Positions 17,193 to 34,077 of a DNA stretch of 56,520 nucleotides are shown in pieces (the stretch's first letter is position 1; each line of letters begins with the position of its first letter). This DNA comes from a candidate division WOR-3 bacterium. Its GTDB lineage: Bacteria > Hydrothermota > Tepidihabitantia > Tepidihabitantales > CAIPLT01. Position numbers and translations under genes: made by a program. The notes under the pieces were generated by a model. It ran no database searches, was not told the DNA's origin, and saw only the letters and a list, made by a program, of their open reading frames with translations. Where the stretch lies: NCBI GenBank assembly GCA_039801485.1, contig JBDRUR010000001.1, positions 1 through 56,520 on the forward strand. Reading direction: 5' to 3'.

Positions 17193-17879
17193 TTACTCAT
17201 AATCTGTTTTTAAAGAATACCGAATTCTAGTTGGTTCTCCAGGAACACGAATAATTAATTCAAAAGCAGCTTGTTCATTCGGACCTAAGTTATATCCTGC
17301 AATATAATTCCAATCTTCCGCAAGTTTTGTTTGCTCGTTAGTATCATAGACTGTAGTCAATACCTTGACTCCATATGCTGTAATATTTTTACTCCTATTT
17401 TTAACACTACCGGTAACGGTAAGATATCCATAACGGTATTCACTTTTCGAATCAAGTATGAAAATATCTGCTTTCTGCTTGGGGATATAAGAAGAAGATT
17501 TATCGGCTGTTTTGTCTGATTTAAACATTCCACTAACGAATACAATTATTATTGCGATAATGATTAACGAAACACACCCTATTAAAGCGTTTTGCGTCTT
17601 TTTGGCTTCATCTTGTTCTTTTAATTTTTTTTGTATTTCAAATCGTGTTTTTTCTTCATCATATATTTTCTTTTTTTCTTCAGATGTTAATTCGTATTTT
17701 CGATTATCTTCAAAAATTGAAGTTTTTCCGATAGTTCTCCAAAATGGATCACCGAAGATTTCTTCCGATTGAATTTGTGCAACAGGCGAAATCTTCCCCT
17801 CTTGTATTTCTTTTATCAGGTGCTCTTTTGATTCAATGTATCTTTCTTGATTATCAATTTTAATTTTTATCATGTTCAC
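17193..17879 (-). CDS. Single-pass membrane protein, uncharacterised (C-terminal FxLYD-like beta domain possible)
   Basis: 228 aa. Charged helical linker (EEKKKIYDEEKTRFEIQKKLKEQDEAKK), one TM (LIGCVSLIIIAIIIVFVSGMF), and an extracytoplasmic beta-rich C-terminus. GGGGGTGAAC precedes the ATG. Confidence 0.5.
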   Translation of the reverse strand: MNMIKIKIDNQERYIESKEHLIKEIQEGKISPVAQIQSEEIFGDPFWRTIGKTSIFEDNRKYELTSEEKKKIYDEEKTRFEIQKKLKEQDEAKKTQNALIGCVSLIIIAIIIVFVSGMFKSDKTADKSSSYIPKQKADIFILDSKSEYRYGYLTVTGSVKNRSKNITAYGVKVLTTVYDTNEQTKLAEDWNYIAGYNLGPNEQAAFELIIRVPGEPTRIRYSLKTDYE

Positions 17880-18432: not shown

Positions 18433-18460
18433 TTGACTTTATAAATATAATATTTAAAAT
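18433..18460 (+). promoter_or_regulatory. Sigma70-like promoter of the pgs operon (TTGACT-16-TAAAAT), -10 ends 6 nt before the ATG
   Basis: TTGACT at 18433..18438, TAAAAT at 18455..18460, ATG at 18467. No SD. Confidence 0.5.
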
Positions 18461-18466
18461 AAACTA

Positions 18467-19633
18467 ATGTATTTTTTATTAATTATTTTACTCGTCTTTA
18501 TGATTGCTGGTATTGTAGAATATCAGCATCATCTCTGTAATGTAAGAAAAATTCCGATCCGTATTCAAGTCAACGGGACCCGGGGTAAATCATCAGTAAC
18601 TAGATTGATTGCTGGCGGACTTAGAGCCGGAGGCATCAAAGTCATTGCCAAAACTACCGGAACCAAACCGAGATTTATCATTAATGATAAAGAAGAAATA
18701 CCAATAAAGAGATTAGGCAAACCGAATATCGGCGAAGAAAAAATGATTTTTCGGCAAGCAGTCAAATATCAACCGCAGGCAATCGTGATGGAATGTATGG
18801 CATTAGTACCGGAATATCAGTGGACCGAAGCAAATCGTTTGGTCAAATCAACCCATTGTGTTATTACTAATGCGCGCGCTGACCACTTAGATGTCATGGG
18901 ACCAACAGTTATTGATGTTGCTAAAGCATTATCCAATACCATCACCAAGAATGCCAAGTTCTTTACTGCCGAACAAAAATATTTAGATATTTTTAAAGAC
19001 CGGGCTAAAAAATTAAATACCGAGGTATTTGTCTCAAATCCAAATTCAGTTAGTGATGAAGATATGAAGGGTTTCAGATATGTTGAACACAAGGAAAATG
19101 TTGCATTAGCACTTTTAGTCTGCGAAAGCTTGGGCGTTGATAAAAAGACCGCTTTGCTAGGGATGTATCAAACAACACCTGACCCCGGTGTTATGCGGAT
19201 ATATCAAATTAAAGACCAAGGTAAACAGTTCCGGTTAGTTAATACTTTGGCAGCTAACGACCCGGATTCAATTCTTTTGCTATGGGAACAAGTTAAGAAT
19301 TTAGCCAATGAAAAAATTGTTCTGGTTAATTGTCGCGACGACCGCGCTGACCGTTCAATTCAATTAGGCGAACTTACGGCTAAAAAATTTGAGGCTGATT
19401 GGTATCTTGCTACTGGGTTCTTAACCATGCCCTATATTCGCAAAGCAACCAGCCTTGGTATTCCTAAACATAAAATTGTTGATTTGGGTGAAAAGACACC
19501 AGAGCAAATATATCAAAAAGTTTTAAGTCTTGTTAAGTCTGATGCCTTGGTATTTGCCACGGGTAATACCGTAGGGTTTGGTGAAACAATCATTGCTTAT
19601 TTTGCCAGTAAAGGAGGAGAAATTGATTATTGA
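18467..19633 (+). CDS. pgsB: Poly-gamma-glutamate synthase, ATP-dependent amide ligase subunit PgsB/CapB
   Basis: N-terminal TM followed by the Mur-ligase P-loop VNGTRGKSSVTRL. AKTTGT, MECMALVPEYQ, ARADHLDVMGPT, TPDPGVMRIY, LAANDPDS and NCRDDRADRS track the B. subtilis PgsB sequence block by block, from memory. Confidence 0.9.
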   Translation: MYFLLIILLVFMIAGIVEYQHHLCNVRKIPIRIQVNGTRGKSSVTRLIAGGLRAGGIKVIAKTTGTKPRFIINDKEEIPIKRLGKPNIGEEKMIFRQAVKYQPQAIVMECMALVPEYQWTEANRLVKSTHCVITNARADHLDVMGPTVIDVAKALSNTITKNAKFFTAEQKYLDIFKDRAKKLNTEVFVSNPNSVSDEDMKGFRYVEHKENVALALLVCESLGVDKKTALLGMYQTTPDPGVMRIYQIKDQGKQFRLVNTLAANDPDSILLLWEQVKNLANEKIVLVNCRDDRADRSIQLGELTAKKFEADWYLATGFLTMPYIRKATSLGIPKHKIVDLGEKTPEQIYQKVLSLVKSDALVFATGNTVGFGETIIAYFASKGGEIDY

Positions 19634-20072
19634 AACAATTGGCTTAGGCATGTTAGCCAGTTTATTTTTAACTGAGACAATTGGTTTGGCTGCTGGTGGC
19701 ATTGTTGTGCCTGGTTATATTGCGCTCTATTTACAACAACCACTAAGGGTTATCGGCACTGTTCTGGTTGGATTAATCGTTTATCTATTAATAAAATTTT
19801 TAGGACGATTTATGCTTTTATATGGTCGTCGATTGTTAGTTATCGGTGTTTTATTGGGCTATTTAATTGGCTATCTTATCCGTCTTTTTCCGCCAATTAC
19901 CTTTACTGATTTCAAGTTAGATGTTAATGTTATTGGTTATGTAATTCCTGGTTTATTGGCATATTGGATGAATCGTCAAGGTATTATTGAAACGATTACG
20001 ACGATGACAATTGCGGCAATCTTAACCCGATTAATCATTATTATTATATCAAATGGCAGTATTACAATTTAA
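19623..20072 (+). CDS. pgsC: Poly-gamma-glutamate synthase membrane subunit PgsC/CapC
   Basis: AAGGIVVPGYIALYL, LYGRR and VIPGLLAYW match PgsC (AGLVVPGYLGLVF, LYGRRKF, IVPGLIANT). I take TTG 19623 as start, 4 nt after GGAGGA and overlapping the pgsB stop. The track's 19578 start lies inside pgsB. Confidence 0.85.
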   Translation: MIIETIGLGMLASLFLTETIGLAAGGIVVPGYIALYLQQPLRVIGTVLVGLIVYLLIKFLGRFMLLYGRRLLVIGVLLGYLIGYLIRLFPPITFTDFKLDVNVIGYVIPGLLAYWMNRQGIIETITTMTIAAILTRLIIIIISNGSITI

Positions 20073-20075
20073 TTT

Positions 20076-21164
20076 ATGAAAAAAAGAATCGATAAAGTTG
20101 GGAGAAGTGTTTTAATAATTTTTACAATAATTACGATTTTGCTTTTTATAGTTGAGTTGAATACGAAACGAGATGTAAAAATTCATTATTACGAAGAAAA
20201 GATTAAAGCTGGTCAGATCTTTCAGGAAATGATGAGAAGAGTAAAAATTGAAAAAGAAAAAAGAGGAATTGTTATTGACCTGATTAATGACCCAAATCAG
20301 ACCGGTATCATTGGGCAACAATATACCCCAATAACATTTCAACGGAGTGATTTATCCGCAAGCTTAACTTCAACTAATCCGAATTTTGTTGCAGTTTTTA
20401 TTGAGATGTTTAAAAAATTAAAACTCAAAAGCGGTGATACAATCGCCGTTGGTTTGGACGGTTCTTTTCCGGCAGTAAATATGGCATTATATTCAGCATT
20501 ACGAGTAATGGATATCAAGCCGATAATAATCACCAATGTTAGTTCAGCAATGTGGGGTGCCAACGACCCAAATTTCACCTGGCTTGACATTGAACATATT
20601 CTATATCAGGACAAACTTACCAGTCATAAGTCAGTGGCAGCATCACTTGGTGGCGAAGATGATTTAGGTCGGGGGTTCAGTCCGCAGGCACGACAATTCT
20701 TGCTTGATGCCGTCAGTCGTAATCAAGTTGAGCTCATCTCATCAGAAAACCTGGAGACTAATATCAAAAAGCATTTGGACGTCTATTTTAAGTGCAAGAA
20801 GATAAAGGCATTTATTAATGTTGGTAAATCAGTTGCCAATATCGGTGAAAATCAATCGTCTTTTATTAATGGCATTATCCGTCGATTGCCATCAAAATAT
20901 AATCGGCAGTCGGTAATTGCTGAGATGTTGAGTAAAAATATCCCAGTAATAAATATCACTGATGTCAACAAAATCGCTATGCGTTATGGTTTACCAATCG
21001 CACCGGTGCCATTGCCACCATTAGGTAAAGGAAAATTATTTATTGAAAAGAGGTTTTCACCAATAGTTGCGTTGATATTTGCTATCATAATTTTGATATG
21101 TTTGTTTTTTGTAATCAGATATGATTTAGAATATTATCTATCGAAAAAAAAGGAGAACAAATGA
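20076..21164 (+). CDS. Bitopic membrane protein in the PgsA/CapA position but not CapA-like; probably the alternative 'poly-gamma-glutamate system protein'
   Basis: 362 aa with TM segments at both ends (VLIIFTIITILLFIV and IVALIFAIIILICLFFVI). It starts 3 nt after pgsC. I see none of the metallophosphatase-type CapA motifs (GNFE, NNH, GHHPH). Confidence 0.5.
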   Translation: MKKRIDKVGRSVLIIFTIITILLFIVELNTKRDVKIHYYEEKIKAGQIFQEMMRRVKIEKEKRGIVIDLINDPNQTGIIGQQYTPITFQRSDLSASLTSTNPNFVAVFIEMFKKLKLKSGDTIAVGLDGSFPAVNMALYSALRVMDIKPIIITNVSSAMWGANDPNFTWLDIEHILYQDKLTSHKSVAASLGGEDDLGRGFSPQARQFLLDAVSRNQVELISSENLETNIKKHLDVYFKCKKIKAFINVGKSVANIGENQSSFINGIIRRLPSKYNRQSVIAEMLSKNIPVINITDVNKIAMRYGLPIAPVPLPPLGKGKLFIEKRFSPIVALIFAIIILICLFFVIRYDLEYYLSKKKENK

Positions 21165-22039
21165 AAATTGACCGGATAAAAGTTTTATTATCATTGCTGT
21201 TAATGACAGCTATATTAGTCGCTCAAGAACAAAAAATCGAAGTAAAGAAAATAACACCACGAACAGTTATCAGTGTCGTCAAACGAGTTGAACAAGAGTA
21301 TTATTTATTAACAAAAAATCAACCAGTGGAATTTTCGGTCACAGGTCCAACAACAGTTAGAGTTTTCACTCGTTTGCTATGGCACGATGATATGCAGGAT
21401 AAACAGAACTACAAACTTATCGTCAAGTATGGCGAAGAAGAAAAAATAGTATCATTGGAATCCGAAGTTTCCAAATCAGCCTGGGGAAATAAAAAGCAGT
21501 ATTATGGCAAATGGCGGTCATTTTATCTCGATGTTCCAAAAGGTACGGCGGATTATCAAATAAGACTTTTAGAAGCAAAATCTGACACGGTCGCAATTCG
21601 GTTTAGTTTGGAAAAACCGAAAGAATATAAGAAAAAGGCACCGGAACCACCTTATACTGAATTGCAATTTGTCGAAAAAGAGAAAATAACTTCATATTAT
21701 GAGGTTAAATTAAATAAACCAATAAAAATCAAAGTTGAAGGTCCGGTGCGTTTAAAAGCAACCTGTCGATTAAATTACGATTATACCTTAGAAGGCAAGC
21801 AGAATTTTACGGTTAGCGCCGTTGTTAGTAATAAAGAATGGCAATCAAAAACATTCCGGGTCTCCAAATCTGAAACTGGCCTATATAAGAATGCTCAACA
21901 ATATCTACCATCGACGCCTGTAAACTTCTATCTCAATATCCCACCGGGCAACTATTTAATTGAGTTTTATTTAAAGAATACCTTAGCCCAAAGTGCTGGT
22001 ATTAGTTTTTATACCAAACCACTCGAAGACTATGAATAA
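21161..22039 (+). CDS. Secreted protein made of two tandem homologous ~110-aa domains, no recognised family
   Basis: Signal peptide LLSLLLMTAILVAQEQ. Repeat 1 is YYLLTKNQPVEFSVTGP...KQNYKL...VSKS...FYLDVPKGTADYQI...IRFS. Repeat 2 is YYEVKLNKPIKIKVEGP...KQNFTV...VSKS...FYLNIPPGNYLI...ISFY. ATGA overlap with the upstream gene. Confidence 0.6.
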   Translation: MKIDRIKVLLSLLLMTAILVAQEQKIEVKKITPRTVISVVKRVEQEYYLLTKNQPVEFSVTGPTTVRVFTRLLWHDDMQDKQNYKLIVKYGEEEKIVSLESEVSKSAWGNKKQYYGKWRSFYLDVPKGTADYQIRLLEAKSDTVAIRFSLEKPKEYKKKAPEPPYTELQFVEKEKITSYYEVKLNKPIKIKVEGPVRLKATCRLNYDYTLEGKQNFTVSAVVSNKEWQSKTFRVSKSETGLYKNAQQYLPSTPVNFYLNIPPGNYLIEFYLKNTLAQSAGISFYTKPLEDYE

Positions 22040-23063
22040 CTGGACAAAAGCTACATTGATAATTTCTTTACTCTTTGTAACTTTACTTAATGCTGAAGTG
22101 GTAAAGTTTACTCGAAAGATAAGTTTCGGCGTTCAGATTAATACCATCTATGATAATAATATCTATTTATATTCACCTGATTATATCGCTGATTTCAGAG
22201 AACAAATTCGCGCTTATCGATTCCCAATCAATACCTATGACGATTTTATTACCAATATTAATCTATCACTACGAATACCTCATGCTAAATCGTCAAACAT
22301 TTATCTTTATTATAAACAATATTTGTATGCGATGAATGCTGAAAAATCCTATCAAATAGTTTCGATGACAATTAGTCAAAACATTGCTAACAATCTGAAG
22401 TCGAAAATAGGGTACTTATTCTTACCGCAATATCTAATTCGTTATTATCGAGACCCATTGGGTTCAGCAACTCGTTATATTGCATGCGCCTTTGCCGAAC
22501 ATCTTTTTACTTTTGGTTTTGAGTACAATCTATCTAATATCAAATTAAATCCATTTGTCCGCTATGAAATTGACAACTATAAAAAGAACTTTAATTTTTA
22601 TGATGGCGAAGCCTTCCGTTTCGGGCTCTCATTAATGGTTCCAATAAAATTTATTAATCTTACTGCCCAAGCAGAACGAAAGTTAAATAATGCTATGGGA
22701 CCAGTGCCTGATATTTCTTATAACCAGAATGCTTATCAATTGACCTTAACCAGCCCATTTTATCAAAAAAAATTGAGTTTTAATATTAGTGGTAGTTTTC
22801 AAACTCGTATCTACACAACTGAAAACGCATTTGAAATTGACCCATACCACAAAGACCGTAACGATAAAATATTTTCATTCGGGACTGGACTCAATTATCG
22901 ATTATCAAAAAAAATCCAAATGAGCCTTGAGTATGAAAAAGAAAAACGGAGTGTCAACACGCCGTATAACATCAATATTGAAGAAATAAAAGATTATCAA
23001 GCTGAACGCATTTCACTTGGAATAAGATTGAATCCAAATTTTGTTATACAACAAGGAGAATAA
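22032..23063 (+). CDS. Predicted outer-membrane beta-barrel protein, no recognised family
   Basis: ATG 22032 overlaps the previous stop by 8 nt. Signal peptide ATLIISLLFVTLLNAEV. Many short amphipathic strands rich in Y/F/N/G (FGFEYNLS, FRFGLSLMV, FSFGTGLNYRLS, MSLEYEK, ISLGIRLNPNF). Confidence 0.45.
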   Translation: MNNWTKATLIISLLFVTLLNAEVVKFTRKISFGVQINTIYDNNIYLYSPDYIADFREQIRAYRFPINTYDDFITNINLSLRIPHAKSSNIYLYYKQYLYAMNAEKSYQIVSMTISQNIANNLKSKIGYLFLPQYLIRYYRDPLGSATRYIACAFAEHLFTFGFEYNLSNIKLNPFVRYEIDNYKKNFNFYDGEAFRFGLSLMVPIKFINLTAQAERKLNNAMGPVPDISYNQNAYQLTLTSPFYQKKLSFNISGSFQTRIYTTENAFEIDPYHKDRNDKIFSFGTGLNYRLSKKIQMSLEYEKEKRSVNTPYNINIEEIKDYQAERISLGIRLNPNFVIQQGE

Positions 23064-23067
23064 AATT

Positions 23068-24063
23068 ATGATGAAAAAATTTAAAAATATCTGGAAAGAC
23101 ATTTTGCCTTATGTGAGTTTATTCTTAATAATTTTTCTGATATCAAATTGTGGAAAACCGATTGAGAAAATAGCACAATTTAAAATTGTTGGTCAATGCC
23201 CTAATCCTGGATATGCCCAGTCTATTTGGGTTGATACCATCAATAATAAACATTATGCCTTTTTGGCATCGGGTCAAGCAGGACTTGTTATCTATAATAT
23301 TGATAATCCTGAGTCAACTTATATTGTTAGTCAGTGGTTAGATTCAATAAATTCTTGTTGGGATGTTACGACATTGCGTGGTTATGCATATTTAGCTTAT
23401 GGCAAAAGAGAATTAATTGTTCTGAATGCAAGAATCATTGACAGTTTGCAATATGTTGACGAATATAATTGGCCATTTCCGGGTAATTCGCGTTCGATAT
23501 TTATTCAAGACACCAGCTATATTTTCGTAGGTGCTCTTGACCGATTACTGGTTTCTGCAGTCGCAACACCGGCATATCCCGACGAATATAACCCACCATC
23601 AAATGTTCGGGGTATATTTATTGTTGATTCTTTTGCTTACATTGCCTCCGAGCAACTTGGCATTTATATAATGAATGTGTTAACAACCCCAAGAAGGATT
23701 GTTAATCTCTGTAATACGCCAAGTAATGCCCGGGGAGTCTTTGCTGATAAGCATTATTGTTATGTTGCTGATGGCAGAAATGGATTAGTTATTATTGATG
23801 TTAGCAATCCTTATCAACCGTCGATTGTATCGCAACTATCATTATCGGGTTATGCTAATAAACCATTTGTAAAAGATACTTTGGCTTATGTTGCTTGTGG
23901 CGAAGCCGGATTGGCAATTGTTAATATTAAAGATATAACAAATCCTATTCTTGTTGAATATGTAAAAACTTCTTATGCCAAAAGTGTTTATGTTACAAAA
24001 GACAATTATATTTATCTTGCTGACCGGGATTTAGGATTAGTTGTCATAAAACAGGAGGACTGA
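23068..24063 (+). CDS. LVIVD-repeat beta-propeller lipoprotein
   Basis: AAGGAGA SD before ATGATG at 23068. Lipobox FLISNC. Repeats: GLVIYNIDNPES, ELIVLNA, GIYIMNV, GLVIIDVSNPYQP, GLAIVNIKDITNP, GLVVIKQ. Confidence 0.7.
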   Translation: MMKKFKNIWKDILPYVSLFLIIFLISNCGKPIEKIAQFKIVGQCPNPGYAQSIWVDTINNKHYAFLASGQAGLVIYNIDNPESTYIVSQWLDSINSCWDVTTLRGYAYLAYGKRELIVLNARIIDSLQYVDEYNWPFPGNSRSIFIQDTSYIFVGALDRLLVSAVATPAYPDEYNPPSNVRGIFIVDSFAYIASEQLGIYIMNVLTTPRRIVNLCNTPSNARGVFADKHYCYVADGRNGLVIIDVSNPYQPSIVSQLSLSGYANKPFVKDTLAYVACGEAGLAIVNIKDITNPILVEYVKTSYAKSVYVTKDNYIYLADRDLGLVVIKQED

Positions 24064-27000
24064 TGATTAAAAAAACGCATAACTCCCACCTGCTATTAGC
24101 TAAGATTTATCTTGTCGTAATCTTACTTTCTTTAGTTTCTCTTTTTGCAGAGACAATGAATTATCCTCTCGGCTATTATACTGCTTTCGAGATTAAAAGC
24201 AAAACAAGTAATCAAATCGACATTGCCGTTAATACTCCGGTAAATATTACAAATGATGTCATCGAAAAGATTATTGACGAATTCAATTTTGTTGACTTAC
24301 CTTATATTTATCAATCAAGATTAATCACAGTACCGGAAAACAGTGATGTTCAGATAATGATAAAACACTATGACTCGCTAATTATTCCCTATAATCAATC
24401 AATAAATCTTGCTCGCGATGAATTTATTGATACCTTGCCACTGGTCTTTTTGGGCAAAGCTGGAATTATGCGAGATTTCAAAGTCGCGCCGTTAAATGTT
24501 CGGCAGTACTTTTTTGATAAATCTAATCGAAATATCATTTGTTATAATAACTTTGATATTGAAATTAAGTTTCCCGAGTCACCCACGCAACTGAGTAATC
24601 TAATCAATATATCAAATGATTGGCTTAGTTTCTATGAAAAATCAATCTTAAACTTTGATAAAAGCGCATTTGGCTCATTAAATTTAGGATTACCCCAAGG
24701 TTATTTAATAATTGTTGCCGACAATTTATATAATAATATCTTGCCGTTAGCGCGATGGAAAAATCTCAAAGGTTGGACAGTAACCGTGAAATTAAAATCA
24801 GAAGTTGGGTCCTCTTGGACCGAAATAAGAAATTATATCAAACAGGCATATTTAACTTGGTCTCCCAAGATTGAATATGTGCTATTAGTTGGCGTTGGTG
24901 GTTCGAGTTCGTCCAATTATATCCCTGCGGTGCCGAGTTATGCGACTTATGGTGACCATCTATATAGTTGCGTTGACGGCGATGATTTATATCCTGATTT
25001 GTTCATTGGCCGATTACCTGCTGCCACAACTTCTGAATTAGCGGTAATGGTTGCCAAAATTATTGGCTATGAACAAACTCCTTATTTAACCGATACAATG
25101 TGGTTTCGACGAGCATTAATGGTTGGAACCAGTTATCAACAAAATTCAACGGTGCCGGTGTGGACCGCGTTAGCTTTAAAACGAAACATAAGGAATTTAT
25201 TATTACAACACGATTATATTACAGTCGATACGGTATTTTATCCACCAACTGCCTCAGGTGTTGGTAGTATTGATACCATTATCAATCGCGGTGTTACATT
25301 TGTTAACGGTCGTGGTTGGGGAAATCGCGAAGGGTGGAACTATCCTTATTTTAAAATTCAAGAAGTCATCAACCTAAATAATGGGTGGAAATTACCGATA
25401 GTAACTAGTTTTTATTGTGCAACTGGAAATTACACTGCATATCCTTCTCGTTGTTTTGGTGAAGCCTGGCTATATGCTGGTTCACCGACCAATCCAAAGG
25501 GCGCGGTTGCATTTTATGGACCAATCTATGCTAATACTTCAACGCGGTTCAATAATTGCCAGGATTTGGCAATTTATTGGGGAATATTCAAAGAAAATAT
25601 ATTTAATTGCGGTCCGGCAATGTTTCGAGGAAAGATAGAAATGCTTAACAATTTTCCGTTATTGTGTGATACTTTAGCACTAAATACTCATGTTAATACT
25701 TATAATCTATTGGGAGACCCTTCATTAGATATGTGGGCTGGAGTTGTTCCAACACAACTTATTGTTAGTTACCCATCAGAGATTCCGGTCGGCAGTTCAA
25801 CGATTACAATTACGGTTACTAACACCAGCTCCCAACGAATAGCGAATGCTCTTGTTTCGTTATATAAACAAAATGAAATTAAACAATCGGCTTTTACTGA
25901 TAATTTAGGTAATGTGACATTTAATTTTACAACTAACACGCCAGATACGCTATTTGTAACAGTTACAAAACATAATTATATTCCTCATCTCGGTCATATT
26001 CGAGTTGTATCGCAACCGGTTTATGTTGGTTTCTATTCATATTCTGGCAACACAATTGCTGGCCAACAGGCTAATCTGATGATATCTTTGAAAAATTACG
26101 GAACAACACAATCGGCTAATAATACTATTGCCACGCTCAGAACTACAGATAATCATATTACGATGATTGACTCGATAAAAAATTATGGTGATATTGCCCC
26201 GGGACAAATTGTCACTAACGGTCCTTTTCAATTCGCTATTGCCCCGAATTGCACCAATAATCATGTGGTTAACTTTCAATTGATAGTAAATAGTGGCAGC
26301 AATAATTGGCAGGCAGGTTTTTCGGTTTTAGTTAGTGCTACTGAATTAGCATATCGTAGTCACATTTTTAATGACGGCAACAATAATGTGTTAGAGCCCG
26401 GGGAGACCAGCAATCTGATAATTAAAATCTTTAATTACGGGTCTCAAAATATTACTAATGTTTTAGGAATTTTACGTGCAACTAACCCTTATGCCATTAG
26501 TGTTGTTGATTCGTTGGGCTATTTTGGGAACATCAATGTCGGTGATACAGTTCAAAATAGTACTGATTATTTTGTCGTATCGGCATCGCCGTTAATTGGC
26601 ATTGGCAGAAAATTCTACTTACAATTATTACTCCGGAGTGGTAATTATCAAAGATTAATTGAGTTTCCAATTATCATCGGTCAAATTTCCAGCACATCAC
26701 CATTAGGACCTGATGGTTACGGTTATTGGGCATATGATAATTCTGATATTGGTTATAGCGAATGCCCGACTTACGATTGGTATGAAATTGACCCGAATTT
26801 TGGTGGTAGTGGCACACGAATATCACTTGGCGATGATGGAATAAGAACAATAAATTTACCTTTTGTTTTTAGATATTATGGCAATAATTACACAAAAATT
26901 TCAATCTGTTCTAATGGTTATGCTGCCTTAGATTCTACCACTGTTATTGACCCGTATAATTGGATGATTCCTTCGCCACTTGGTCCTCGGAATATGTTAG

Positions 27001-27719
27001 CAATTATGTGGGATGATTTTCATCCAGATACAATGAATGCATCTGGCGTCTATTATTATTATGATAATACTAATCACCGTTTTATCATCGAATGGAGTCG
27101 GGTTCATCATGTTCATGGATATCGTAATCCCAATATTGCTGAATTGCAAACCTTCCAAATTTTGCTATTAAATCCTGCTTATTATCCAACGCGCACTGGT
27201 GATGGCCCGATAATTTTCCAATATCATACGGTAGTCAATGACGACTCTTTTCCAACCGATTGTCATAATTATGCCACGGTAGGTATCGAGAACTATTCAC
27301 AAGATATCGGCATTGAATATACATTTGCTAATCGCTATCCGCCGTCGGCGGCAATATTACAGAATGGACGAGCAATTAAATTCACAACCAATGCTCCGGA
27401 TACCTTTACGAGCATTATAGAAATTCCGGATATAAAAATCCAGACGCAAAATCTTAAATTCACAGCAATACCTAATCCAATGCACAACCAAACAATATTA
27501 GAGTATAATTTGCCTTTTGATGCCGAAGTGAACTTAGTAATCTATGATATTACTGGGAAAATTATCAAGGCATTGGTGAATTCACAAAAAAAACATTGGG
27601 GATATCATAAAGTGCGGTGGGATAAAAATACAATTAGGTCCGGTATCTATTTTGCATTGTTGACAATTAAACAGCACAATTTTATAATAACTAAGCAGAT
27701 AAAATTAACAATATTATAA
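24063..27719 (+). CDS. Gingipain-like (peptidase C25 family) multidomain surface protein with T9SS C-terminal sorting domain
   Basis: 1218 aa. C25 core is about aa 213-556: YLIIVADNLYNNILPLARWKNLKGWTV, EYVLLVG, DLYPDLFIGRLPA, LPIVTSFYCATGNY, LLGDPSLDMW. Then two CARDB-like modules, a ~225-aa conserved module (aa 882-1108) and a C-terminal tail AIPNPMHNQTILEYNL...VNLVIYDITGKII...SGIYFALL. TGATG overlap with the upstream gene. Confidence 0.75.
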   Translation: MIKKTHNSHLLLAKIYLVVILLSLVSLFAETMNYPLGYYTAFEIKSKTSNQIDIAVNTPVNITNDVIEKIIDEFNFVDLPYIYQSRLITVPENSDVQIMIKHYDSLIIPYNQSINLARDEFIDTLPLVFLGKAGIMRDFKVAPLNVRQYFFDKSNRNIICYNNFDIEIKFPESPTQLSNLINISNDWLSFYEKSILNFDKSAFGSLNLGLPQGYLIIVADNLYNNILPLARWKNLKGWTVTVKLKSEVGSSWTEIRNYIKQAYLTWSPKIEYVLLVGVGGSSSSNYIPAVPSYATYGDHLYSCVDGDDLYPDLFIGRLPAATTSELAVMVAKIIGYEQTPYLTDTMWFRRALMVGTSYQQNSTVPVWTALALKRNIRNLLLQHDYITVDTVFYPPTASGVGSIDTIINRGVTFVNGRGWGNREGWNYPYFKIQEVINLNNGWKLPIVTSFYCATGNYTAYPSRCFGEAWLYAGSPTNPKGAVAFYGPIYANTSTRFNNCQDLAIYWGIFKENIFNCGPAMFRGKIEMLNNFPLLCDTLALNTHVNTYNLLGDPSLDMWAGVVPTQLIVSYPSEIPVGSSTITITVTNTSSQRIANALVSLYKQNEIKQSAFTDNLGNVTFNFTTNTPDTLFVTVTKHNYIPHLGHIRVVSQPVYVGFYSYSGNTIAGQQANLMISLKNYGTTQSANNTIATLRTTDNHITMIDSIKNYGDIAPGQIVTNGPFQFAIAPNCTNNHVVNFQLIVNSGSNNWQAGFSVLVSATELAYRSHIFNDGNNNVLEPGETSNLIIKIFNYGSQNITNVLGILRATNPYAISVVDSLGYFGNINVGDTVQNSTDYFVVSASPLIGIGRKFYLQLLLRSGNYQRLIEFPIIIGQISSTSPLGPDGYGYWAYDNSDIGYSECPTYDWYEIDPNFGGSGTRISLGDDGIRTINLPFVFRYYGNNYTKISICSNGYAALDSTTVIDPYNWMIPSPLGPRNMLAIMWDDFHPDTMNASGVYYYYDNTNHRFIIEWSRVHHVHGYRNPNIAELQTFQILLLNPAYYPTRTGDGPIIFQYHTVVNDDSFPTDCHNYATVGIENYSQDIGIEYTFANRYPPSAAILQNGRAIKFTTNAPDTFTSIIEIPDIKIQTQNLKFTAIPNPMHNQTILEYNLPFDAEVNLVIYDITGKIIKALVNSQKKHWGYHKVRWDKNTIRSGIYFALLTIKQHNFIITKQIKLTIL

Positions 27720-27724
27720 CAAAA

Positions 27725-29053
27725 ATGGAGCGGATAATGATCAAAAAATATAGCGTTGTTTTATTGATGATTATAACAATTTCGTTGCTTAGCGCACACA
27801 ATTTTCACGGTGCCGCGATGGCACCGAACTCATTAAATGGCTGGGTAGTCACAATTGACACACCGATGGTTTTTTATACACCTGATGGTGGGCATAACTG
27901 GATAAATCGAAGTTTCTTAGATGCTTTATCTTATTTTGATGTCTTCGCCCTTAACTCACAAAAAGTTTGGATTGGCGGTGTGCAGGGATTTATTCATTAT
28001 AGCCCAAATCAAGGGCAAAATTGGTATGTTCAAAGAATGGGATTATCAAAATGGACGGCGCGAATTTTCTTCCTAAACGACACACTTGGTTGGGCGGCAT
28101 GTGGCAGTGCCATCATTGGAAAAACAATTCATGGAAGCGATACCATTTATCAAATGGATTTATGGGAACAAATTAACTTAACAAACCCGCCTTTTTCGGC
28201 TGACTCTTGTGATATTTATGGCATTCACTTCATTAATGAAAATATTGGCTGGTTTTGTGCCGGCCGTTATCCGGAAAATGATACCGAATACATAAAAGGG
28301 CAAGGTTATATTGCTAAAACAACCGATGGTGGTAGTAATCCATTGACTTGGCAACTTCTGCTCAGAGATACAATAAATGACTTTTTTGATATTAAGTTTA
28401 TTGATGCCTTACATGGGATAGTTGTTGGCGGTAATGACCGAACGAACGCTGGTATTGTTTTGAAAACCCAAGATGGTGGTATCACTTGGCAACCAGTAAC
28501 GGTTCCACCTGGAACCAAAATACTTCGAGCATTAGAACTGGTCGGCAATACCCATTTATGGGCAGTTGGTCGCAACGGAACAATTATAAAAAGCACTGAT
28601 GGCGGAAATACCTGGACAGCCCAAATTAGCGGAGTCGACACTACTTTGTTTGATGTTGATTTTGCTGATACCTTGAACGGCTTAATTGCCGGTAATGGTT
28701 ATGTGCTTTATACCCATAATGGGGGAACAACTTGGTACATTGCCAATGTTTATGGGATCGAAGAACCATCAGATAAAATGACAAATTTAAATCAGAATTC
28801 CCTAGTAAGAGTCAATCCAAATCCATTCTACAATCAGATAACTATCAATATTCCTACACAGAATTTGAATGATAATGTCTGTCAAATTTATGACATTATG
28901 GGTAATTTAGTAAGGACAATTAATGTGACAACGCCCTCAATAATTTGGAACGGCAAAGATATGCATAGTCGCTATGTTCCTGCTGGTGTTTATTTTATAA
29001 AAGTTGAATTTGCAAACCGCTCTTCAATCACGCCTGTCATTTTTGTTCGGTGA
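27725..29053 (+). CDS. BNR/Asp-box (Ycf48/sialidase-like) beta-propeller with T9SS C-terminal sorting domain
   Basis: Asp-boxes: TPDGGHNW, SPNQGQNW, TTDGGSNPLTW, TQDGGITW, STDGGNTW, THNGGTTW. Tail VNPNPFYNQITINI...CQIYDIMGNLV...AGVYFIKV. Start may be ATG 27737 (MIKKY). Confidence 0.7.
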   Translation: MERIMIKKYSVVLLMIITISLLSAHNFHGAAMAPNSLNGWVVTIDTPMVFYTPDGGHNWINRSFLDALSYFDVFALNSQKVWIGGVQGFIHYSPNQGQNWYVQRMGLSKWTARIFFLNDTLGWAACGSAIIGKTIHGSDTIYQMDLWEQINLTNPPFSADSCDIYGIHFINENIGWFCAGRYPENDTEYIKGQGYIAKTTDGGSNPLTWQLLLRDTINDFFDIKFIDALHGIVVGGNDRTNAGIVLKTQDGGITWQPVTVPPGTKILRALELVGNTHLWAVGRNGTIIKSTDGGNTWTAQISGVDTTLFDVDFADTLNGLIAGNGYVLYTHNGGTTWYIANVYGIEEPSDKMTNLNQNSLVRVNPNPFYNQITINIPTQNLNDNVCQIYDIMGNLVRTINVTTPSIIWNGKDMHSRYVPAGVYFIKVEFANRSSITPVIFVR

Positions 29054-29062
29054 GGAGTTCTT

Positions 29063-32000
29063 ATGGGACATAAAAATTATAAAGTCCGGAAAATTTTGTA
29101 TACCGTAATGCTTCTTTTATTTATAGGTAATTTATATGCCCGTAGCGGTGCAAAATATCTAATTATTGCTCCAGATAACTTTGTTTCGGCGTTACAACCA
29201 TTAGCTGATTGGAAAACTAAAAAGGGCGTCAAGGCAATGATTGTGCCCTTGTCGGTTACCGGGAATACTGCCAGTCAAATAAAAAACTATATCTTAAACG
29301 CCTACAATACTTGGGAAATAAGGCCGGAATATATTTTACTGGCTGGAGCAAGTTCAGTTTTACCAGCATCGGGTTCTACTGATGATTATTATGCAAATAT
29401 TGATGGTAACTATTTGATTGAACTGAGTATCGGTCGTTTCCCTGGCACAACAGTTGACCAAATCAGTAACATTGTAAATAAAACTTTGCACTATGAGCGA
29501 TATCCATATATTGATGACCCCAGCTGGTTTTTAAAAGGTATGACGATTGTCCGTGAAGATTACTCCGCATATCCGCCAACTTCCTATCCGGATACTTATT
29601 ATTGGGAAAACGCCCGATATTGTATTAATCGCTGGTTAGAAAATGGCTATGTATTAATTGATTCGTTATCAAAAAATCTTGGGCATTCTGCTACCAATAT
29701 TATCAACGGCATTAATAACGGTCGAGCATATGTTATATTTCGGGGACAATCAACGACCAATTGGTGGACACCTTTTCAAGTTGACCCAGCCAGCACTACC
29801 AATGGTTATAAATTACCGGTAATTGTATCTGGCACTTGTGCGACGATGTCACTATCTTCTTCGAATTATTTAGGGAATATGTTTATTAATGCCGGTTCGG
29901 TTGATAATCCCAAAGGTGCGGTGGGATATTTTGCGTCAACAATGACTTCCAGTGGTTCTGGTTTAGCACAACAACGGGGGACAGTTGCAGTTGGTTTTTA
30001 TCAAGCATTATTTGCCGAAGGCATTTATAAAATGGGCGACGCGGCAAAGCGTGCCAAGTTTTTACTTGACTCAATTAGACCACCGGGTTTTTCTCAGGAC
30101 CGTTATAATGAATGGAACCTGTTTGGAGACCCAGAATTAAACCTATGGACAAATGTACCTAAGCGATTGATTGTGACTTACGATTCGGTAATACCACAAT
30201 CACAAACAAACTTATTAGTTACTGTCCGAGGCGAATTTCTTCAGCCGATTGCTAATGCCTTAGTTTGCGTGCGAATGGACACGAGTGTCTATTCGACCGG
30301 TTATACTAATTCAGCAGGGCAGGTACAATTGCCAATTAATTCAAGCGTCACCGGGATAATGGATGTGACTGTCACTGCTCGTAATTGTATTCCATTTGAA
30401 GGAACTGCTAGGTTGGTCCCGGCCAATGTGCCATTTATAAACATCCAGTCAATAGTGTATAATGATTCACTTAGCAATAACGATGGTCAAATTAACCCAG
30501 GCGAGTATATTAATTTAAGAATTTTTTTAAGAAATGATGGCGGTATCAGTGCTGAAAATACAAATGCCACTTTACGCACAACCGACCCCAATATTGTAAT
30601 TATTGATAGTTTCGCTTCATATGGAACAATTGGCATTGGCCAAAGTCTTCCCTCACAAACTTATTATAAATTTTTCGTCAATCCAAATCTTCCTCATAAT
30701 TACCAACTAAACTTTTCTCTCTATATTTATGACCAACAGAACAATTATTGGCTCCGTTCTTTTTCGTTGCCCATTCATGCTGGTAAAATTACTTATTCAA
30801 CTCATTATCTTATCGATACTTTATTTAATGGTAATAACAATTCCTATTTAGGTCCCAATGAAAATGCTTTATTAAAACTAAGATTAGATAATATTGGTAG
30901 TTCGTTAAATGACGTAATCGCCATTCTACATACTGACAATCCTTATCTGATAATAACTGATTCATCAGCTAGTTTTGGTTCAATCGCTGGTGGTGGTAAT
31001 AATATAAACAACACTGATCCATTTATTATTAGTGCCTCGCCCTCTTTGCCCAAGAATTATCAGATAAATTTCAAACTTAGAATCATTGGTCATGGCGACA
31101 CTTATCTTTATACTGATTCATTAACATTTACAGTTACCACTGAACAAGGGACTACTCAAGACCCGACCGGTCCGGATCAATATGGTTATTGGGCTTATGA
31201 TAATACCGATACCTTATCCGGCCGGGCACCGATTTACAATTGGCTGGAAATTGGTCCCGGTGGTCCGGGGACATTAATTGAGGCGATAACAAATCACGAT
31301 GCAGCGGTTACGACAATGCGCTTGCCATTTACTTTCAAATATTATGGTCAGAATTATGATTCGATATCGGTTTGTTCTAATGGTTTTTTGGCAATGGGAC
31401 GGACATCGTATCGCTTTGGTAATAATACTTCAGGGATTCCTGATACCTCGGGCCCAGCAGCAATGATTGCGCCGCTGTGGTGTGATTTAGATCCGAGTCT
31501 TGCCGGTGACATTTATCAATACTATGATGCCGCCAATCATTGCTGGATTGTAGAGTTTTATCAAGTAGCTATCTACAATCAAGCAACTAACAACCAGACT
31601 TTTCAAGTGGTGCTATATGACCCGATATATTATCCAACTACAACTGGTGATGGCCAAATTGAATTCCTCTATCAAACCGTGAATCCGCCTTCATTAAATA
31701 CCGTCGGTATTGAAAATGGATTGCAAACTATCGGTATTCAGTATATGCGAGATAACATCTACCATCAGAACGCAGCAATTTTAACAAGCGGTCGGGCAAT
31801 AAAGTTCACCACGCTACCGCCGATCTCATATCAAAATCCCTGGATCGTTTTAACCAACAGTCAAATCGCCGATTCTTTAAATGGTAATAACAACCATATT
31901 CCGGAGCCGAGTGAGACAATCCAGTTGGTGATTACTTTGCGTAATAACGGTGCGGTGTCCGCGCAGAATGTTTCAGTAATCTTACAAAATCTTGATGGCG

Positions 32001-32518
32001 ACGCGATTGTTTTAGATTCGGTAAAGACTTTTGGTAATATCCCAGTTTCGGGTCAAGTTAATAATCTTAATAATCCTTTTAGTTTTCAAATAGTTGCCAA
32101 TCCGGCTGATACTATTTGTGATTTTTGTCTAATAATTACTGCACAAAACAATAATTACACCAATGTCCAATATTTTTCAATCGGGCTCTGTCATTATGCC
32201 GGGATTGAAACTAGTCCAGATAAAATCAATCTACATCACTTAGCATACAACTTACATCAAAATTTCCCTAATCCTTTCAAAACCAAAACTACTATTCGAT
32301 ATTCGTTACCACTAAAAGAATTTATCTTCTTAAAAATCTACAATATCAACGGTGAGTTGGTTCGCAACCTAATTCAAGACTACCAAGAACCAGGTAATTA
32401 TCAGATAGTTTGGGACCGAAAAGATAACAAAGGGAATGTAGTGGCTAATGGCATATATTTCTACTCACTTTCAACTACGACTCATAAAAAATTCACTCGC
32501 AAGATGCTAATTTATTAA
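29063..32518 (+). CDS. Gingipain-like (peptidase C25 family) multidomain surface protein, paralogue of 24063..27719, with T9SS C-terminal sorting domain
   Basis: 1151 aa. GAGGAG SD. C25 core starts right after the signal peptide: YLIIAPDNFVSALQPLADWKTKKGVKAMIV, EYILLAG, LSIGRFPG, LPVIVSGTCATMS, LFGDPELNLW. Then three CARDB-like modules, the shared conserved module (aa 703-917) and tail NFPNPFKTKTTIRYSL...LKIYNINGELV...NGIYFYSL. Confidence 0.75.
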   Translation: MGHKNYKVRKILYTVMLLLFIGNLYARSGAKYLIIAPDNFVSALQPLADWKTKKGVKAMIVPLSVTGNTASQIKNYILNAYNTWEIRPEYILLAGASSVLPASGSTDDYYANIDGNYLIELSIGRFPGTTVDQISNIVNKTLHYERYPYIDDPSWFLKGMTIVREDYSAYPPTSYPDTYYWENARYCINRWLENGYVLIDSLSKNLGHSATNIINGINNGRAYVIFRGQSTTNWWTPFQVDPASTTNGYKLPVIVSGTCATMSLSSSNYLGNMFINAGSVDNPKGAVGYFASTMTSSGSGLAQQRGTVAVGFYQALFAEGIYKMGDAAKRAKFLLDSIRPPGFSQDRYNEWNLFGDPELNLWTNVPKRLIVTYDSVIPQSQTNLLVTVRGEFLQPIANALVCVRMDTSVYSTGYTNSAGQVQLPINSSVTGIMDVTVTARNCIPFEGTARLVPANVPFINIQSIVYNDSLSNNDGQINPGEYINLRIFLRNDGGISAENTNATLRTTDPNIVIIDSFASYGTIGIGQSLPSQTYYKFFVNPNLPHNYQLNFSLYIYDQQNNYWLRSFSLPIHAGKITYSTHYLIDTLFNGNNNSYLGPNENALLKLRLDNIGSSLNDVIAILHTDNPYLIITDSSASFGSIAGGGNNINNTDPFIISASPSLPKNYQINFKLRIIGHGDTYLYTDSLTFTVTTEQGTTQDPTGPDQYGYWAYDNTDTLSGRAPIYNWLEIGPGGPGTLIEAITNHDAAVTTMRLPFTFKYYGQNYDSISVCSNGFLAMGRTSYRFGNNTSGIPDTSGPAAMIAPLWCDLDPSLAGDIYQYYDAANHCWIVEFYQVAIYNQATNNQTFQVVLYDPIYYPTTTGDGQIEFLYQTVNPPSLNTVGIENGLQTIGIQYMRDNIYHQNAAILTSGRAIKFTTLPPISYQNPWIVLTNSQIADSLNGNNNHIPEPSETIQLVITLRNNGAVSAQNVSVILQNLDGDAIVLDSVKTFGNIPVSGQVNNLNNPFSFQIVANPADTICDFCLIITAQNNNYTNVQYFSIGLCHYAGIETSPDKINLHHLAYNLHQNFPNPFKTKTTIRYSLPLKEFIFLKIYNINGELVRNLIQDYQEPGNYQIVWDRKDNKGNVVANGIYFYSLSTTTHKKFTRKMLIY

Positions 32519-34077
32519 TGCCCTCTAAATATCAAGCATTTATTTTCATCTCCGGTTTTATATTTCTGTTCAGTAATCTGACATTAGCTATTGACTCCCG
32601 TTATCATACCTATGGTGAAGTAATTGACGAAATGCGATTAATTTGGCTGAATCATCAAGACATCACAAAAATTTATACGATTGGTTATACCACGGGATTT
32701 AATTTGCCAATTTTAGCAATGAAAATATCAGATAATCCCGAAATTGACGAAGACGAACCGGCTATCCTATTTAATGGTATTCATCATGCGCCCGAAGTTA
32801 TTGGTCCGGAGATTTGCTTATATTTAATGGCAGATTTAGTAGCCAAATATGGAAACGATTCATTAATTACTGAGATAATTAATTCTTCAGAAATTTGGGT
32901 GGTGCCAATGGTTAACCCGGATGGTAATTATATTGTCCATGCCGGTTTTGATACCTTGTGGCGTAAGAATTGTCGGGATAATAATCAAAATGGCATATGG
33001 GATTTCGGCGACGGTGTTGATTTGAATCGTAATTACGACTTTTTATGGAGTATGGGCGGCACATCGACGCCCTCAGACCGTAATTATCGGGGGCCTTATC
33101 CTTTCTCTGAAAACGAAACCCAGGCAATTCGGGATTTAGCTTTACGAGAAAAATTTGTCTTCGATATCTGTTATCATAGTAGCAAGGAATCCTGGGAAGG
33201 CGAAGCAGTTTATTATCCCTGGCGTTGGGGGAATCCTTTCGCCCCTGACCATAATCACATTCGACCAATTGCCGAAAGTATTGCGCTAAGTATTGTTAAT
33301 GATGCCGGCACCGGTACCTATTATGCCACCTATGGTCGTGCTACCGAAGGCGGTTTGACGCGTAATTGGCTTTACTACGCAATCGGCACATTTGCATTTA
33401 CTATCGAAGTGAGTCATGGTTATTTTCCTCCAGGTTACCGCGTTGATTCCATCTGCCAAAGAAACTTACCCGGCGCTTACTATCTGTTACGAAGAATGCA
33501 CGGTAGTCAAATCACCGGGCATATTACTGATTCAATAACTGGTGAACCAATGGTTGCTGAAGTGAGAATCCTTCAGGCATACGCGCCACCAGAGACTATT
33601 GCTCCACGCACATCTGACCCGATATTTGGACGATATTTCCGAATTTTATCACCAGGAAATTACACGGTTCAAGTCATCAAACCCGGTTATGATACCGTGA
33701 CGATTCCGAATGTAAATGTTACTTTTGGTCAGCCAACAGTATTAGATATAAAAATGCAACCCAGTCGAGCAATGGAGAAGAAAAACCAAGTATTAAATAT
33801 GTCCTATGATGACTGTCAAGTGGCGTCAACAATCGGAACAAATTTCGCCAATATTGTGATTTCACTAAAAAAACAATCTGATGTCACAATCAAAATTTAT
33901 ACCAGTGATGGCCGATTAATTAAAGATTTTGCAACCCACTCCTATCAGCCGGGCAAGCATATTCTCTGGTGGCATTTTGATGACCAAAATGGTAATAAAG
34001 TTAACAATGGTATCTACTTTATAAAAATAATTACACCTTCTTTTGAGAAAATAAAGAAAATTGTTTTAATAGATTAA
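32518..34077 (+). CDS. M14-family zinc carboxypeptidase with carboxypeptidase-regulatory-like domain and T9SS C-terminal sorting domain
   Basis: GIHHAPE (HxxE zinc site), NPDG, WRKNCRD, DLNRNY, CYHSS, FTIEVS (catalytic Glu). Then GHITDSITGEPMVAEVRI (CarbopepD_reg-like). Tail VTIKIYTSDGRLI...NGIYFIKI. TAATG overlap with the upstream gene. Confidence 0.8.
   Translation: MPSKYQAFIFISGFIFLFSNLTLAIDSRYHTYGEVIDEMRLIWLNHQDITKIYTIGYTTGFNLPILAMKISDNPEIDEDEPAILFNGIHHAPEVIGPEICLYLMADLVAKYGNDSLITEIINSSEIWVVPMVNPDGNYIVHAGFDTLWRKNCRDNNQNGIWDFGDGVDLNRNYDFLWSMGGTSTPSDRNYRGPYPFSENETQAIRDLALREKFVFDICYHSSKESWEGEAVYYPWRWGNPFAPDHNHIRPIAESIALSIVNDAGTGTYYATYGRATEGGLTRNWLYYAIGTFAFTIEVSHGYFPPGYRVDSICQRNLPGAYYLLRRMHGSQITGHITDSITGEPMVAEVRILQAYAPPETIAPRTSDPIFGRYFRILSPGNYTVQVIKPGYDTVTIPNVNVTFGQPTVLDIKMQPSRAMEKKNQVLNMSYDDCQVASTIGTNFANIVISLKKQSDVTIKIYTSDGRLIKDFATHSYQPGKHILWWHFDDQNGNKVNNGIYFIKIITPSFEKIKKIVLID

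Follow-up and report, generated by a model that had tools for sequence, protein, structure and literature searches.

Positions 18467 to 34077 of the forward strand, within a stretch of 56,520 nucleotides from a candidate division WOR-3 bacterium (assembly GCA_039801485.1, contig JBDRUR010000001.1, positions 1 to 56,520; the whole stretch is called the window hereafter), carry a gene cluster headed by pgsB and pgsC, the genes of a poly-gamma-glutamate (PGA) synthase. Our analysis suggests, with a probability of about 0.6, that this cluster is an envelope-spanning module for PGA synthesis and export in diderm bacteria of the Fibrobacteres-Chlorobi-Bacteroidetes (FCB) group, in which the polymer would be handled at the cell surface by type IX secretion system (T9SS) cargo. 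The conserved core comprises seven genes, namely pgsB, pgsC, the gene of a TIGR04332-family protein, two genes called g4 and g5 here, the gene of an LVIVD-repeat lipoprotein and that of a Peptidase_C25-family (C25) protein. Knowledge of PGA comes almost wholly from Bacillus, a monoderm, and for the steps by which the polymer would cross the outer membrane of a diderm the cluster offers candidates in a 14-strand barrel, a lipoprotein, a nameless periplasmic family and a surface partner. These are conserved in hundreds of species-level genomes, among them cultured lineages (Melioribacter, Bacteroidales), so that the question can be tested directly. Judging from the family matches, the three-gene head belongs to an already curated family and the extended cluster is what appears to be new. 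Indeed, we found no paper describing the latter (barrel, lipoprotein, g4 family and T9SS-tailed C25 partner with an Arg/Cys pair), and nothing in the literature linking PgsB to type IX secretion or Bacteroidota, PGA to Ignavibacteria, or WOR-3 to T9SS, in agreement with the original prediction made on this DNA, which knew of no described system of such composition.

The gene set is conserved on a large taxonomic scale. One genome per GTDB species was scanned with a TIGR04332 alignment as query, which gave relatives in 509 species-level genomes; the best 80 of the 509 were then compared by mapping iterated hidden Markov models (HMMs) from the window proteins onto all loci, and presence was counted only for loci whose contig has room. 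These best 80 loci belong to WOR-3 (22), Stahlbacteria (3), Hydrothermota (1), TA06 (1), Latescibacterota (1), Neomarinimicrobiota (1), Ignavibacteria-type genomes including a Melioribacter roseus metagenome-assembled genome (MAG) (11), Bacteroidota-type genomes (25), a probably mis-binned 'Clostridia' genome (1) and unlabelled genomes (14). Virtually all loci that are long enough have the genes in the order pgsB-pgsC-TIGR04332-g4-g5-LVIVD, with pgsBC present in 69/69 loci, g4 in 77/77, g5 in 71/72 and LVIVD in 62/63, and with the TIGR04332 gene right behind pgsC in 69/69. Moreover, a C25 gene with a T9SS tail adjoins the cluster in 47/47 loci with room on both sides, i.e., every PGA cluster examined with such room has a C25 partner, located upstream in 24 loci, downstream in 22 and on both sides in one. 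Two arrangements were recognized: in the WOR-3 type, C25 lies directly behind LVIVD (22 loci), often as C25-BNR-C25, and in the Ignavibacteria/Bacteroidales type directly ahead of pgsB (24 loci). The genes flanking the cluster vary between relatives. The pgsBC pair was not seen without these neighbours in the relatives, so the predicted linkage held, and the worry that the stretch at about 21.1-24.1 kb might be an assembly chimera was cleared, since the same junctions occur in more than 80 independent assemblies.

Conservation was also examined from the other side, with a reciprocal test in which only the Ignavibacteria/Bacteroidales-type C25 domain was searched against metagenome contigs and the 47 loci with room behind the last C25 gene were counted. 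In 41 of them pgsB follows directly after C25, and one more is a rearranged locus (L170, 9200-19124) that keeps the gene set as C25-g5-LVIVD-pgsB-pgsC-TIGR04332-g4. A divergent variant (L092) keeps the order C25-B-C-W-g4-g5-LVIVD, where B and C stand for pgsB and pgsC and W for the TIGR04332 gene; at 11553-15229 of this locus, the LVIVD protein carries a fused FGE-sulfatase domain, and behind it comes a membrane acyltransferase of HGSNAT_cat type, a family that also adjoins an Ignavibacteriota cluster (L008, 15252-16292), and these neighbours are hints of polymer modification. As a further observation, the MAG labelled 'Clostridia bacterium' (L082, SABY01000068.1) carries a full Bacteroidales-type cluster with a T9SS-tailed C25 gene on a contig that is probably mis-binned.

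In the window, the cluster is tiled without gap by ten same-strand open reading frames (ORFs) (Table 1) and not by eleven as stated in the original prediction, whose own product list also gives ten; likewise, eight ORFs rather than nine follow pgsC. Direct reading of each junction bore out the predicted range of -11 to +9 nt, together with the four overlapping codons or overlaps that had been singled out. The junctions are -11 nt for pgsB/pgsC, +3 nt for pgsC/g3, -4 nt for g3/g4 (ATGA at 21161), -8 nt for g4/g5 (g5 ATG at 22032), +4 nt for g5/g6 (g6 ATG at 23068), -1 nt for g6/g7 (TGATG at 24063), +5 nt for g7/g8, +9 nt for g8/g9 and -1 nt for g9/g10 (TAATG at 32518). Shine-Dalgarno (SD)-like motifs were read before five starts (pgsC, g4, g6, g7 and g9), the TTG start of pgsC at 19623 being located behind AAGGAGG. 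Terminator-like matches inside the gene run occur at chance level (13 versus 13.0 expected), which fits the earlier remark that no hairpin or T-run is found before 34077. A hydropathy scan gave an N-terminal hydrophobic segment in 9/10 products; that of g9 falls under the scan threshold, yet it is visible by eye in the sequence.

Table 1. Coordinates of the cluster genes and promoter sites in the window, with the main evidence for each
Feature	Position	Strand	Evidence
Sigma-70-type promoter TTGACT-16-TAAAAT	18433..18460	+	-10 box ends 6 nt before pgsB ATG
pgsB, PGA synthase ligase subunit	18467..19633	+	TIGR04012 441 bits; Mur_ligase_M
pgsC, polytopic membrane subunit	19623..20072	+	TIGR04011 116.5 bits; Caps_synth_CapC 113 bits
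g3 (W), TIGR04332 'poly-gamma-glutamate system protein'	20076..21164	+	305 bits vs 100
g4, secreted tandem-repeat protein	21161..22039	+	hhalign duplication; no described family
g5, predicted outer-membrane beta-barrel	22032..23063	+	14-strand model; Foldseek OmpG/CymA
g6, LVIVD-repeat (beta-propeller) lipoprotein	23068..24063	+	LVIVD 73.7 bits; signal peptide then Cys
g7, C25-family surface protein	24063..27719	+	Peptidase_C25 199.8 bits; TIGR04183 25.5 bits
Internal sigma-70 consensus TTGACA-17-TATAAT	27660..27688	+	12/12 match, inside g7 3' end
g8, BNR/Ycf48-like beta-propeller	27725..29053	+	PSII_BNR 65 bits; Por_Secre_tail 31.7 bits
g9, second C25-family Arg/Cys protein	29063..32518	+	Peptidase_C25 158.7 bits; TIGR04183 26.9 bits
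g10, M14 zinc carboxypeptidase + CarboxypepD_reg	32518..34077	+	Peptidase_M14 175 bits

Transcription would start from a promoter abutting the pgsB ATG, and the overlapping stop and start codons would couple translation. Promoter-like matches are not rare in a general scan (100 versus 77 expected), so the TTGACT-16-TAAAAT site that had been predicted directly before pgsB is, taken alone, at chance level; however, many WOR-3 relatives (L001, L003, L005, L006, L007, L013, L014, L028-L031, L034 and L035) have a TTGACA-17-TATAAT-type promoter at this very position, with its end ~6-10 nt ahead of the pgsB ATG. The genes upstream of it differ between these relatives, and the pgsB promoter is therefore very probably real. 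Since the -10 box lies 6-10 nt from the ATG and the window sequence has no SD motif ahead of it, the pgsB mRNA is probably leaderless or near-leaderless; in contrast, strong SD motifs precede the starts of several internal genes. On the 5' side of pgsB, a 587-nt spacer separates the cluster from a divergent ORF (17193-17879; 228 aa, no family match), which shares this promoter region and could be a regulator. Note that GltX (glutamyl-tRNA synthetase) is encoded at 15571-16983, upstream of the glutamate-polymerising operon and with the divergent ORF between them. Further down, the perfect consensus within the g7 region coding for the T9SS tail lies 37 nt before g8, in a stretch for which such a perfect match is expected ~0.04 times by chance (a rough estimate); L003 and L005 have it in perfect form as well, and L011 and L012 in near-perfect form, with different encoded residues.

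The identities of the synthase subunits, which had been proposed from the letters and left to a profile-HMM test, exceed the curated NCBI cut-offs for both proteins (222.7 bits for TIGR04012 and 96.45 bits for TIGR04011, which are equivalog models; 100 bits for TIGR04332). PgsB matches TIGR04012 over its full length (4-379) and has a transmembrane (TM) segment at residues 1-19 as N-terminal membrane anchor, and PgsC, whose homologues in relatives measure 141-150 aa, also matches Caps_synth_CapC (PF14102, cut-off 27 bits). PgsB, an ATP-dependent and membrane-anchored ligase, and the polytopic PgsC would polymerise glutamate at the inner membrane. The product of the third gene, which starts 3 nt past the pgsC stop, had been described as a non-CapA bitopic protein; it indeed has no CapA match, but it belongs to the named family TIGR04332 and has two TM helices instead of one. 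Its structure model (pLDDT 82.6) shows an alpha/beta domain of ~300 aa between a helix near the N-terminus (10-29) and a long one near the C-terminus (329-361); the domain is predicted to face the periplasm because both termini are K/R-rich. This protein would replace PgsA/CapA, its periplasmic domain, held by the two TM helices, receiving the nascent chain. No PDB relative was found for it by sequence profile.

Like the Bacillus loci (pgsBCAE/capBCADE), the cluster begins with the genes of PgsB and PgsC orthologues, in this order, and continues with that of a membrane-anchored third protein whose extracytoplasmic domain is large. In contrast, Pfam and NCBIfam searches gave no match to PGA_cap/CapA, gamma-glutamyltransferase (GGT) or NlpC/P60 in any of the ten products, PGA_cap remaining unmatched for g3-g6 even at E-values up to 10; PgsA/CapA, PgsE/CapE, CapD/GGT and PgdS have no match here. 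The statement that none of the known PGA partners is present was therefore right for CapA, GGT and NlpC/P60, but the third gene does represent a known PGA-system family. The cluster also differs from the Bacillus loci in its additional outer-membrane barrel, lipoprotein, duplicated periplasmic protein and T9SS-tailed proteins, and in its host, since the BamA (49997-52213) and SurA-like (4699-6720) proteins encoded in the window indicate a diderm cell, as had been claimed.

The next three genes are candidates for the export steps: g4, the g6 lipoprotein and the g5 barrel would carry the polymer over the periplasm and the outer membrane. The predicted tandem duplication of g4 was recovered by aligning its N-terminal and C-terminal halves (hhalign 99.7%, E 5e-26), and the protein consists of a signal peptide and two homologous beta-rich repeats of ~120 aa each. 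Pfam, NCBIfam and the PDB gave no match for it, and an exhaustive search of 1.84 billion representatives returned only 300 relatives (each representing a cluster at 50% identity), with lengths of about 275-320 aa in nearly all cases, which points to a small and uniform family without a name. One protein (P0253) was considered as a g4-g5 fusion and rejected, as its N-terminal extension is only weakly similar to the g4 repeat (hhalign 11.6%) and a separate g4 lies in the same locus. For g5, the sequence HMM matches (OMP_b-brl and EpsL) are sub-threshold, but the structure model (pLDDT 81.9) gives a 14-stranded barrel, in line with the predicted outer-membrane barrel; Foldseek places OmpG and CymA, which are monomeric channels with a large pore, as its best matches (E 2e-10, prob 1.0, TMt <=0.67), and PgaA, the poly-N-acetylglucosamine (PNAG) secretin (4y25), is also among the fold matches. 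We therefore propose g5 as a candidate exit pore for the polymer on the basis of this model. The assignment of g6 as an LVIVD lipoprotein also stood: its signal peptide ends at a Cys (LISNC|GKP), and a Cys behind the hydrophobic stretch is kept in 71/80 homologues. A PDB sequence search with this protein gave nothing useful.

The resulting layout follows the same logic as synthase-dependent exopolysaccharide secretion (alginate Alg8/44-AlgK-AlgE, PNAG PgaCD-PgaB-PgaA and cellulose BcsAB-BcsC), i.e., an inner-membrane polymerase, periplasmic or lipoprotein accessories, a dedicated outer-membrane barrel and a polymer-modifying enzyme in the operon, with the barrel gene located beside the synthase genes as g5 is. 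Polysaccharide-export barrels have 16-18 strands. The present system differs in its 14-stranded, OmpG/CymA-like barrel, in a putative product that would be a polyamide and not a polysaccharide, in the folds of g4 and g6, and in the cluster having no match to a tetratricopeptide-repeat scaffold (Pfam, NCBIfam). There is no homology past the barrel fold, and the resemblance is thus an analogy of working rather than family membership.

The surface partner deserves particular attention. Both g7 and g9 score far above the Pfam cut-off of Peptidase_C25 (23 bits), and they are paralogues with 35% identity over ~900 aa that have Ig-like domains in common, g9 being without the N-terminal region of g7. 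The latter comprises a propeptide-like N-terminal region, the C25 domain (Arg417/Cys452), Ig-like domains, a NIDO-like domain and, at its C-terminus, a T9SS tail. Residues 215-584 of g7 align with the gingipain RgpB (1cvr, E 1e-27), with RgpB Cys244 kept as Cys452 and RgpB His211 replaced by Arg417. An alignment of 97 PGA-linked C25 proteins from L001-L088, g7 and g9 included, displayed the Arg/Cys pair in 94/94 proteins with residues at both columns, and Arg317 and Arg374 are near-invariant too. In the same 1cvr alignment, read by eye, RgpB Asp163, the S1 residue, faces an Ala of g7; an Arg/Lys specificity as in gingipains was ruled out from this replacement and from that of His211. The identification of g7 or g9 as PorU was likewise ruled out, the NF033707 model giving 54.5 and 61.9 bits versus 420 and the dyad being different, since PorU keeps Cys/His (PMC4560394). 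Because Arg replaces the catalytic His and the PorU model stays at these scores, g7 and g9 are functionally neither gingipains nor PorU. They do share with gingipains (RgpB, Kgp) and PorU the C25 family, the catalytic Cys, the Ig-like domain and the T9SS tail, in contrast to the His-to-Arg replacement and the extra NIDO-like domain. The 'gingipain-like' label thus holds for the family and fails for the active site, and the trimming of the polymer by such proteases, as originally envisaged, is not a safe reading given the Arg in place of the His. A domain of ~230 aa (GPDxYGYxAYD...LPFxFxYYG...SNG) is common to g7 (residues ~880-1115, positions ~26700-27400), g9 (~700-930, ~31150-31850) and the C25 proteins of Ignavibacteria/Bacteroidales type; it corresponds to the NIDO match, which is sub-threshold (23.4 bits, E 7e-5), and has no PDB match, a PDB sequence search with g7 region 650-1115 giving nothing useful.

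On the surface, the T9SS-tailed C25 protein or proteins would bind, cut or attach the emerging polymer, i.e., take the role of CapD/PgdS in Bacillus. The large C25 clade of FCB bacteria with an invariant Arg for His could represent a new catalytic variant or pseudo-protease binding modules. Under the former, the Arg/Cys proteins would be new clan-CD enzymes whose Arg grips the alpha-carboxylates of PGA, acting as surface PGA transpeptidase or depolymerase and as the diderm counterpart of CapD, a speculation that we regard as improbable. In its strongest form, PGA would be the anionic surface polymer that tethers T9SS cargo in place of the anionic lipopolysaccharide (A-LPS) of Porphyromonas, and, if true, type IX secretion and polyglutamate synthesis would be tied together in several phyla.

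T9SS tails had been assigned to the last four products, and three of them (g7 and g9, Table 1, and g8 with 31.3 bits) indeed exceed the TIGR04183 cut-off for type-A tails (23 bits); g10 is marginal, being just under the cut-off with 22.5 bits, and most of its homologues among the matches listed carry precomputed FlgD_ig and/or Por_Secre_tail domains. The N-termini of g7-g10 are signal-peptide-like (by the hydropathy scan, and by reading for g9). The labels of g8 as a BNR propeller and of g10 as an M14 carboxypeptidase were both recovered by family models (Table 1). In WOR-3-type loci that reach far enough, g8 is placed between two C25 genes. The nearest solved structure of g10 is carboxypeptidase T (E 1e-35), with conservation of HHAPE (HxxE), DLNRNY (NR motif) and FTIEV (catalytic Glu), the third Zn-ligand His being aligned less cleanly. 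M14 is the last cluster gene in three WOR-3-type relatives whose g3 is 42-51% identical (L089, L090 and L091), and the genes 3' of it are different in L090 and L091 and like the window in L089. In the WOR-3-type clusters, the core would be extended by a BNR propeller and an M14 carboxypeptidase.

Could such an enzyme act on PGA? The phage PGA hydrolase PghP is a Zn enzyme and a relative of carboxypeptidase A (PMC4497714), which is a precedent for an M14 enzyme acting on PGA; g10 shares the Zn carboxypeptidase fold with intact active-site motifs, but its nearest relative is carboxypeptidase T (M14A-like) and not PghP. The same precedent, together with the adjacency of surface peptidase-like proteins and a porin-like barrel, could be turned into a catabolic scheme, in which external PGA or peptides would be broken down at the surface by C25 and M14 enzymes and the fragments taken up through g5, the PgsBC-like proteins being misnamed. 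We consider this scheme highly improbable, since PgsB is an ATP-dependent synthetase of Mur-ligase type that matches a PGA synthase equivalog at 441 bits, neither an inner-membrane importer nor a glutamate catabolic gene was matched in the cluster (Pfam, NCBIfam), and the C25 proteins are without the catalytic His.

Several observations weigh against an envelope-spanning PGA module with T9SS-delivered surface partners. That its product is PGA we infer from the head genes, the cluster being known here from its genes alone, and no glutamate racemase was found in the cluster. Foldseek with the model of the TIGR04332 protein gave only low-TM noise (TM-score <=0.24), and, its domain being without a recognisable fold relative, the role assigned to it above is a guess. 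Francisella capBCA, with a 'CapA' of the same annotation, is not tied to the capsule (PMC5362203, PMC4688374). On the surface side, no T9SS machinery gene (porKLMN, sov, porV) is located within the 56.5-kb window, no other conserved His occurs in the C25 domain of the 97-sequence alignment, the catalytic His being missing, and the PGA-linked C25 proteins may be non-enzymatic. Five of the 47 reciprocal loci (L108, L136, L150, L157 and L166) have no PGA gene within the flank, and BNR and M14 were not seen beside clusters of Ignavibacteria/Bacteroidales type. Finally, the consensus at 27660-27688 may be a promoter for g8-g10 and may split the operon. Of the diderm-adapted PGA system originally proposed, the gene order kept in relatives and the diderm host thus stand as observations, while the polymer, its export and its handling by proteins delivered through the T9SS are what the gene content suggests.

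The last of these points lead to the chief rival explanation, that two units lie side by side: a PGA system from pgsB to LVIVD, and C25, BNR and M14 genes encoding ordinary T9SS surface hydrolases or adhesins (e.g., for protein foraging), which became adjacent through shared regulation or history and have no action on the polymer. C25 genes are indeed found apart from PGA genes: the five loci above have Arg/Cys C25 genes in tandem without pgsBC nearby, and further arrays, up to six genes long, lie on recovered contigs that show no PGA genes (L114, L133 and L139). These arrays away from pgsBC mean that the Arg/Cys clade is larger than the PGA system and not exclusively dedicated to it, and the 'dedicated set of surface proteins' of the original prediction has to be qualified on this point. 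It should be noted that two neighbours of Arg/Cys C25 genes carry the canonical HG motif (L157, 5069-9238; L164, 5414-9238). The two-unit explanation would also account for C25 lying upstream or downstream depending on the lineage, for BNR and M14 being seen only in WOR-3-type and unlabelled relatives, and for the perfect and conserved sigma-70 consensus before g8. In addition, CPG70, the M14 carboxypeptidase secreted by the T9SS of P. gingivalis, trims gingipains, and g10 could likewise serve the C25 proteins and not PGA. However, unless linkage is under selection, adjacency in 47/47 loci over several phyla and in two arrangements is difficult to account for; 42/47 C25 genes of the reverse test are linked to the cluster, the outer flanks change while the C25 gene stays, and the TGATG and TAATG codons join g6 to g7 and g9 to g10. 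We consequently regard two independent units as rather unlikely. As for the system and the operon first proposed, the seven-gene core is conserved and the whole set is not, with BNR and M14 seen only in the relatives just named; the gap-free coupled junctions and the conserved pgsB promoter speak for an operon, but with a conserved promoter-like site before g8 a single transcript over the ten genes is not assured.

A second alternative concerns the product itself. A PgsBC-type ligase could add gamma-glutamyl chains to an envelope component (lipid, lipopolysaccharide-like glycan or protein) instead of making a free capsule, and the other cluster genes would then move or process the conjugate, as is suspected for capBCA of Francisella tularensis, which is needed for virulence. 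The latter is a three-gene locus with the same PgsB/PgsC/TIGR04332-type head, and its published description mentions no g4, g5, LVIVD or C25 partners (PMC4688374); its CapA (FTT_0807) bears the annotation 'poly-gamma-glutamate system protein' (PMC5362203), and capB and capC were reported as not involved in capsule production of LVS, suggesting another function (PMC4688374). The missing matches to CapA/PgsA, PgsE and CapD and the TIGR04332 protein without a fold relative would also suit a conjugate. In contrast, both PgsB and PgsC far exceed equivalog cut-offs derived from PGA producers, and a porin-like barrel suits the export of a linear soluble polymer. Moreover, Fusobacterium nucleatum, which is Gram-negative, makes PGA. 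Taken together, we judge a conjugate doubtful and retain the synthesis and export of PGA as the preferred reading. In either case, the cluster bears on what the PgsB/PgsC/TIGR04332 cassettes of Gram-negative bacteria such as Francisella make; in addition, PGA is an industrial polymer, and a new system for its synthesis and export would be of applied interest.

Outside the cluster, the surrounding genes in the window are housekeeping genes, and the 3' neighbour is a convergent NUDIX gene. The closest protein matches, with identities of 87% (g3) and 98% (g10), come from MAGs of candidate division WOR-3, and the G+C content is ~35%. About 10 kb upstream and outside the conserved cluster, a transglutaminase-core protein of 467 aa is encoded at 6775-8178 (-), with a fold like that of Cys proteases, acting on the side chains of Gln/Glu. 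Two adjoining ORFs at 44499-46765 encode products of 371 and 384 aa, the first with weak CBM96/disaggregatase-repeat matches and the second without a family. The window also carries a tRNA-Leu gene (CAA) at 8298-8381 and, at 13454-13643, a pair of tRNA-Ser genes (UGA and GCU anticodons) separated by 10 nt.

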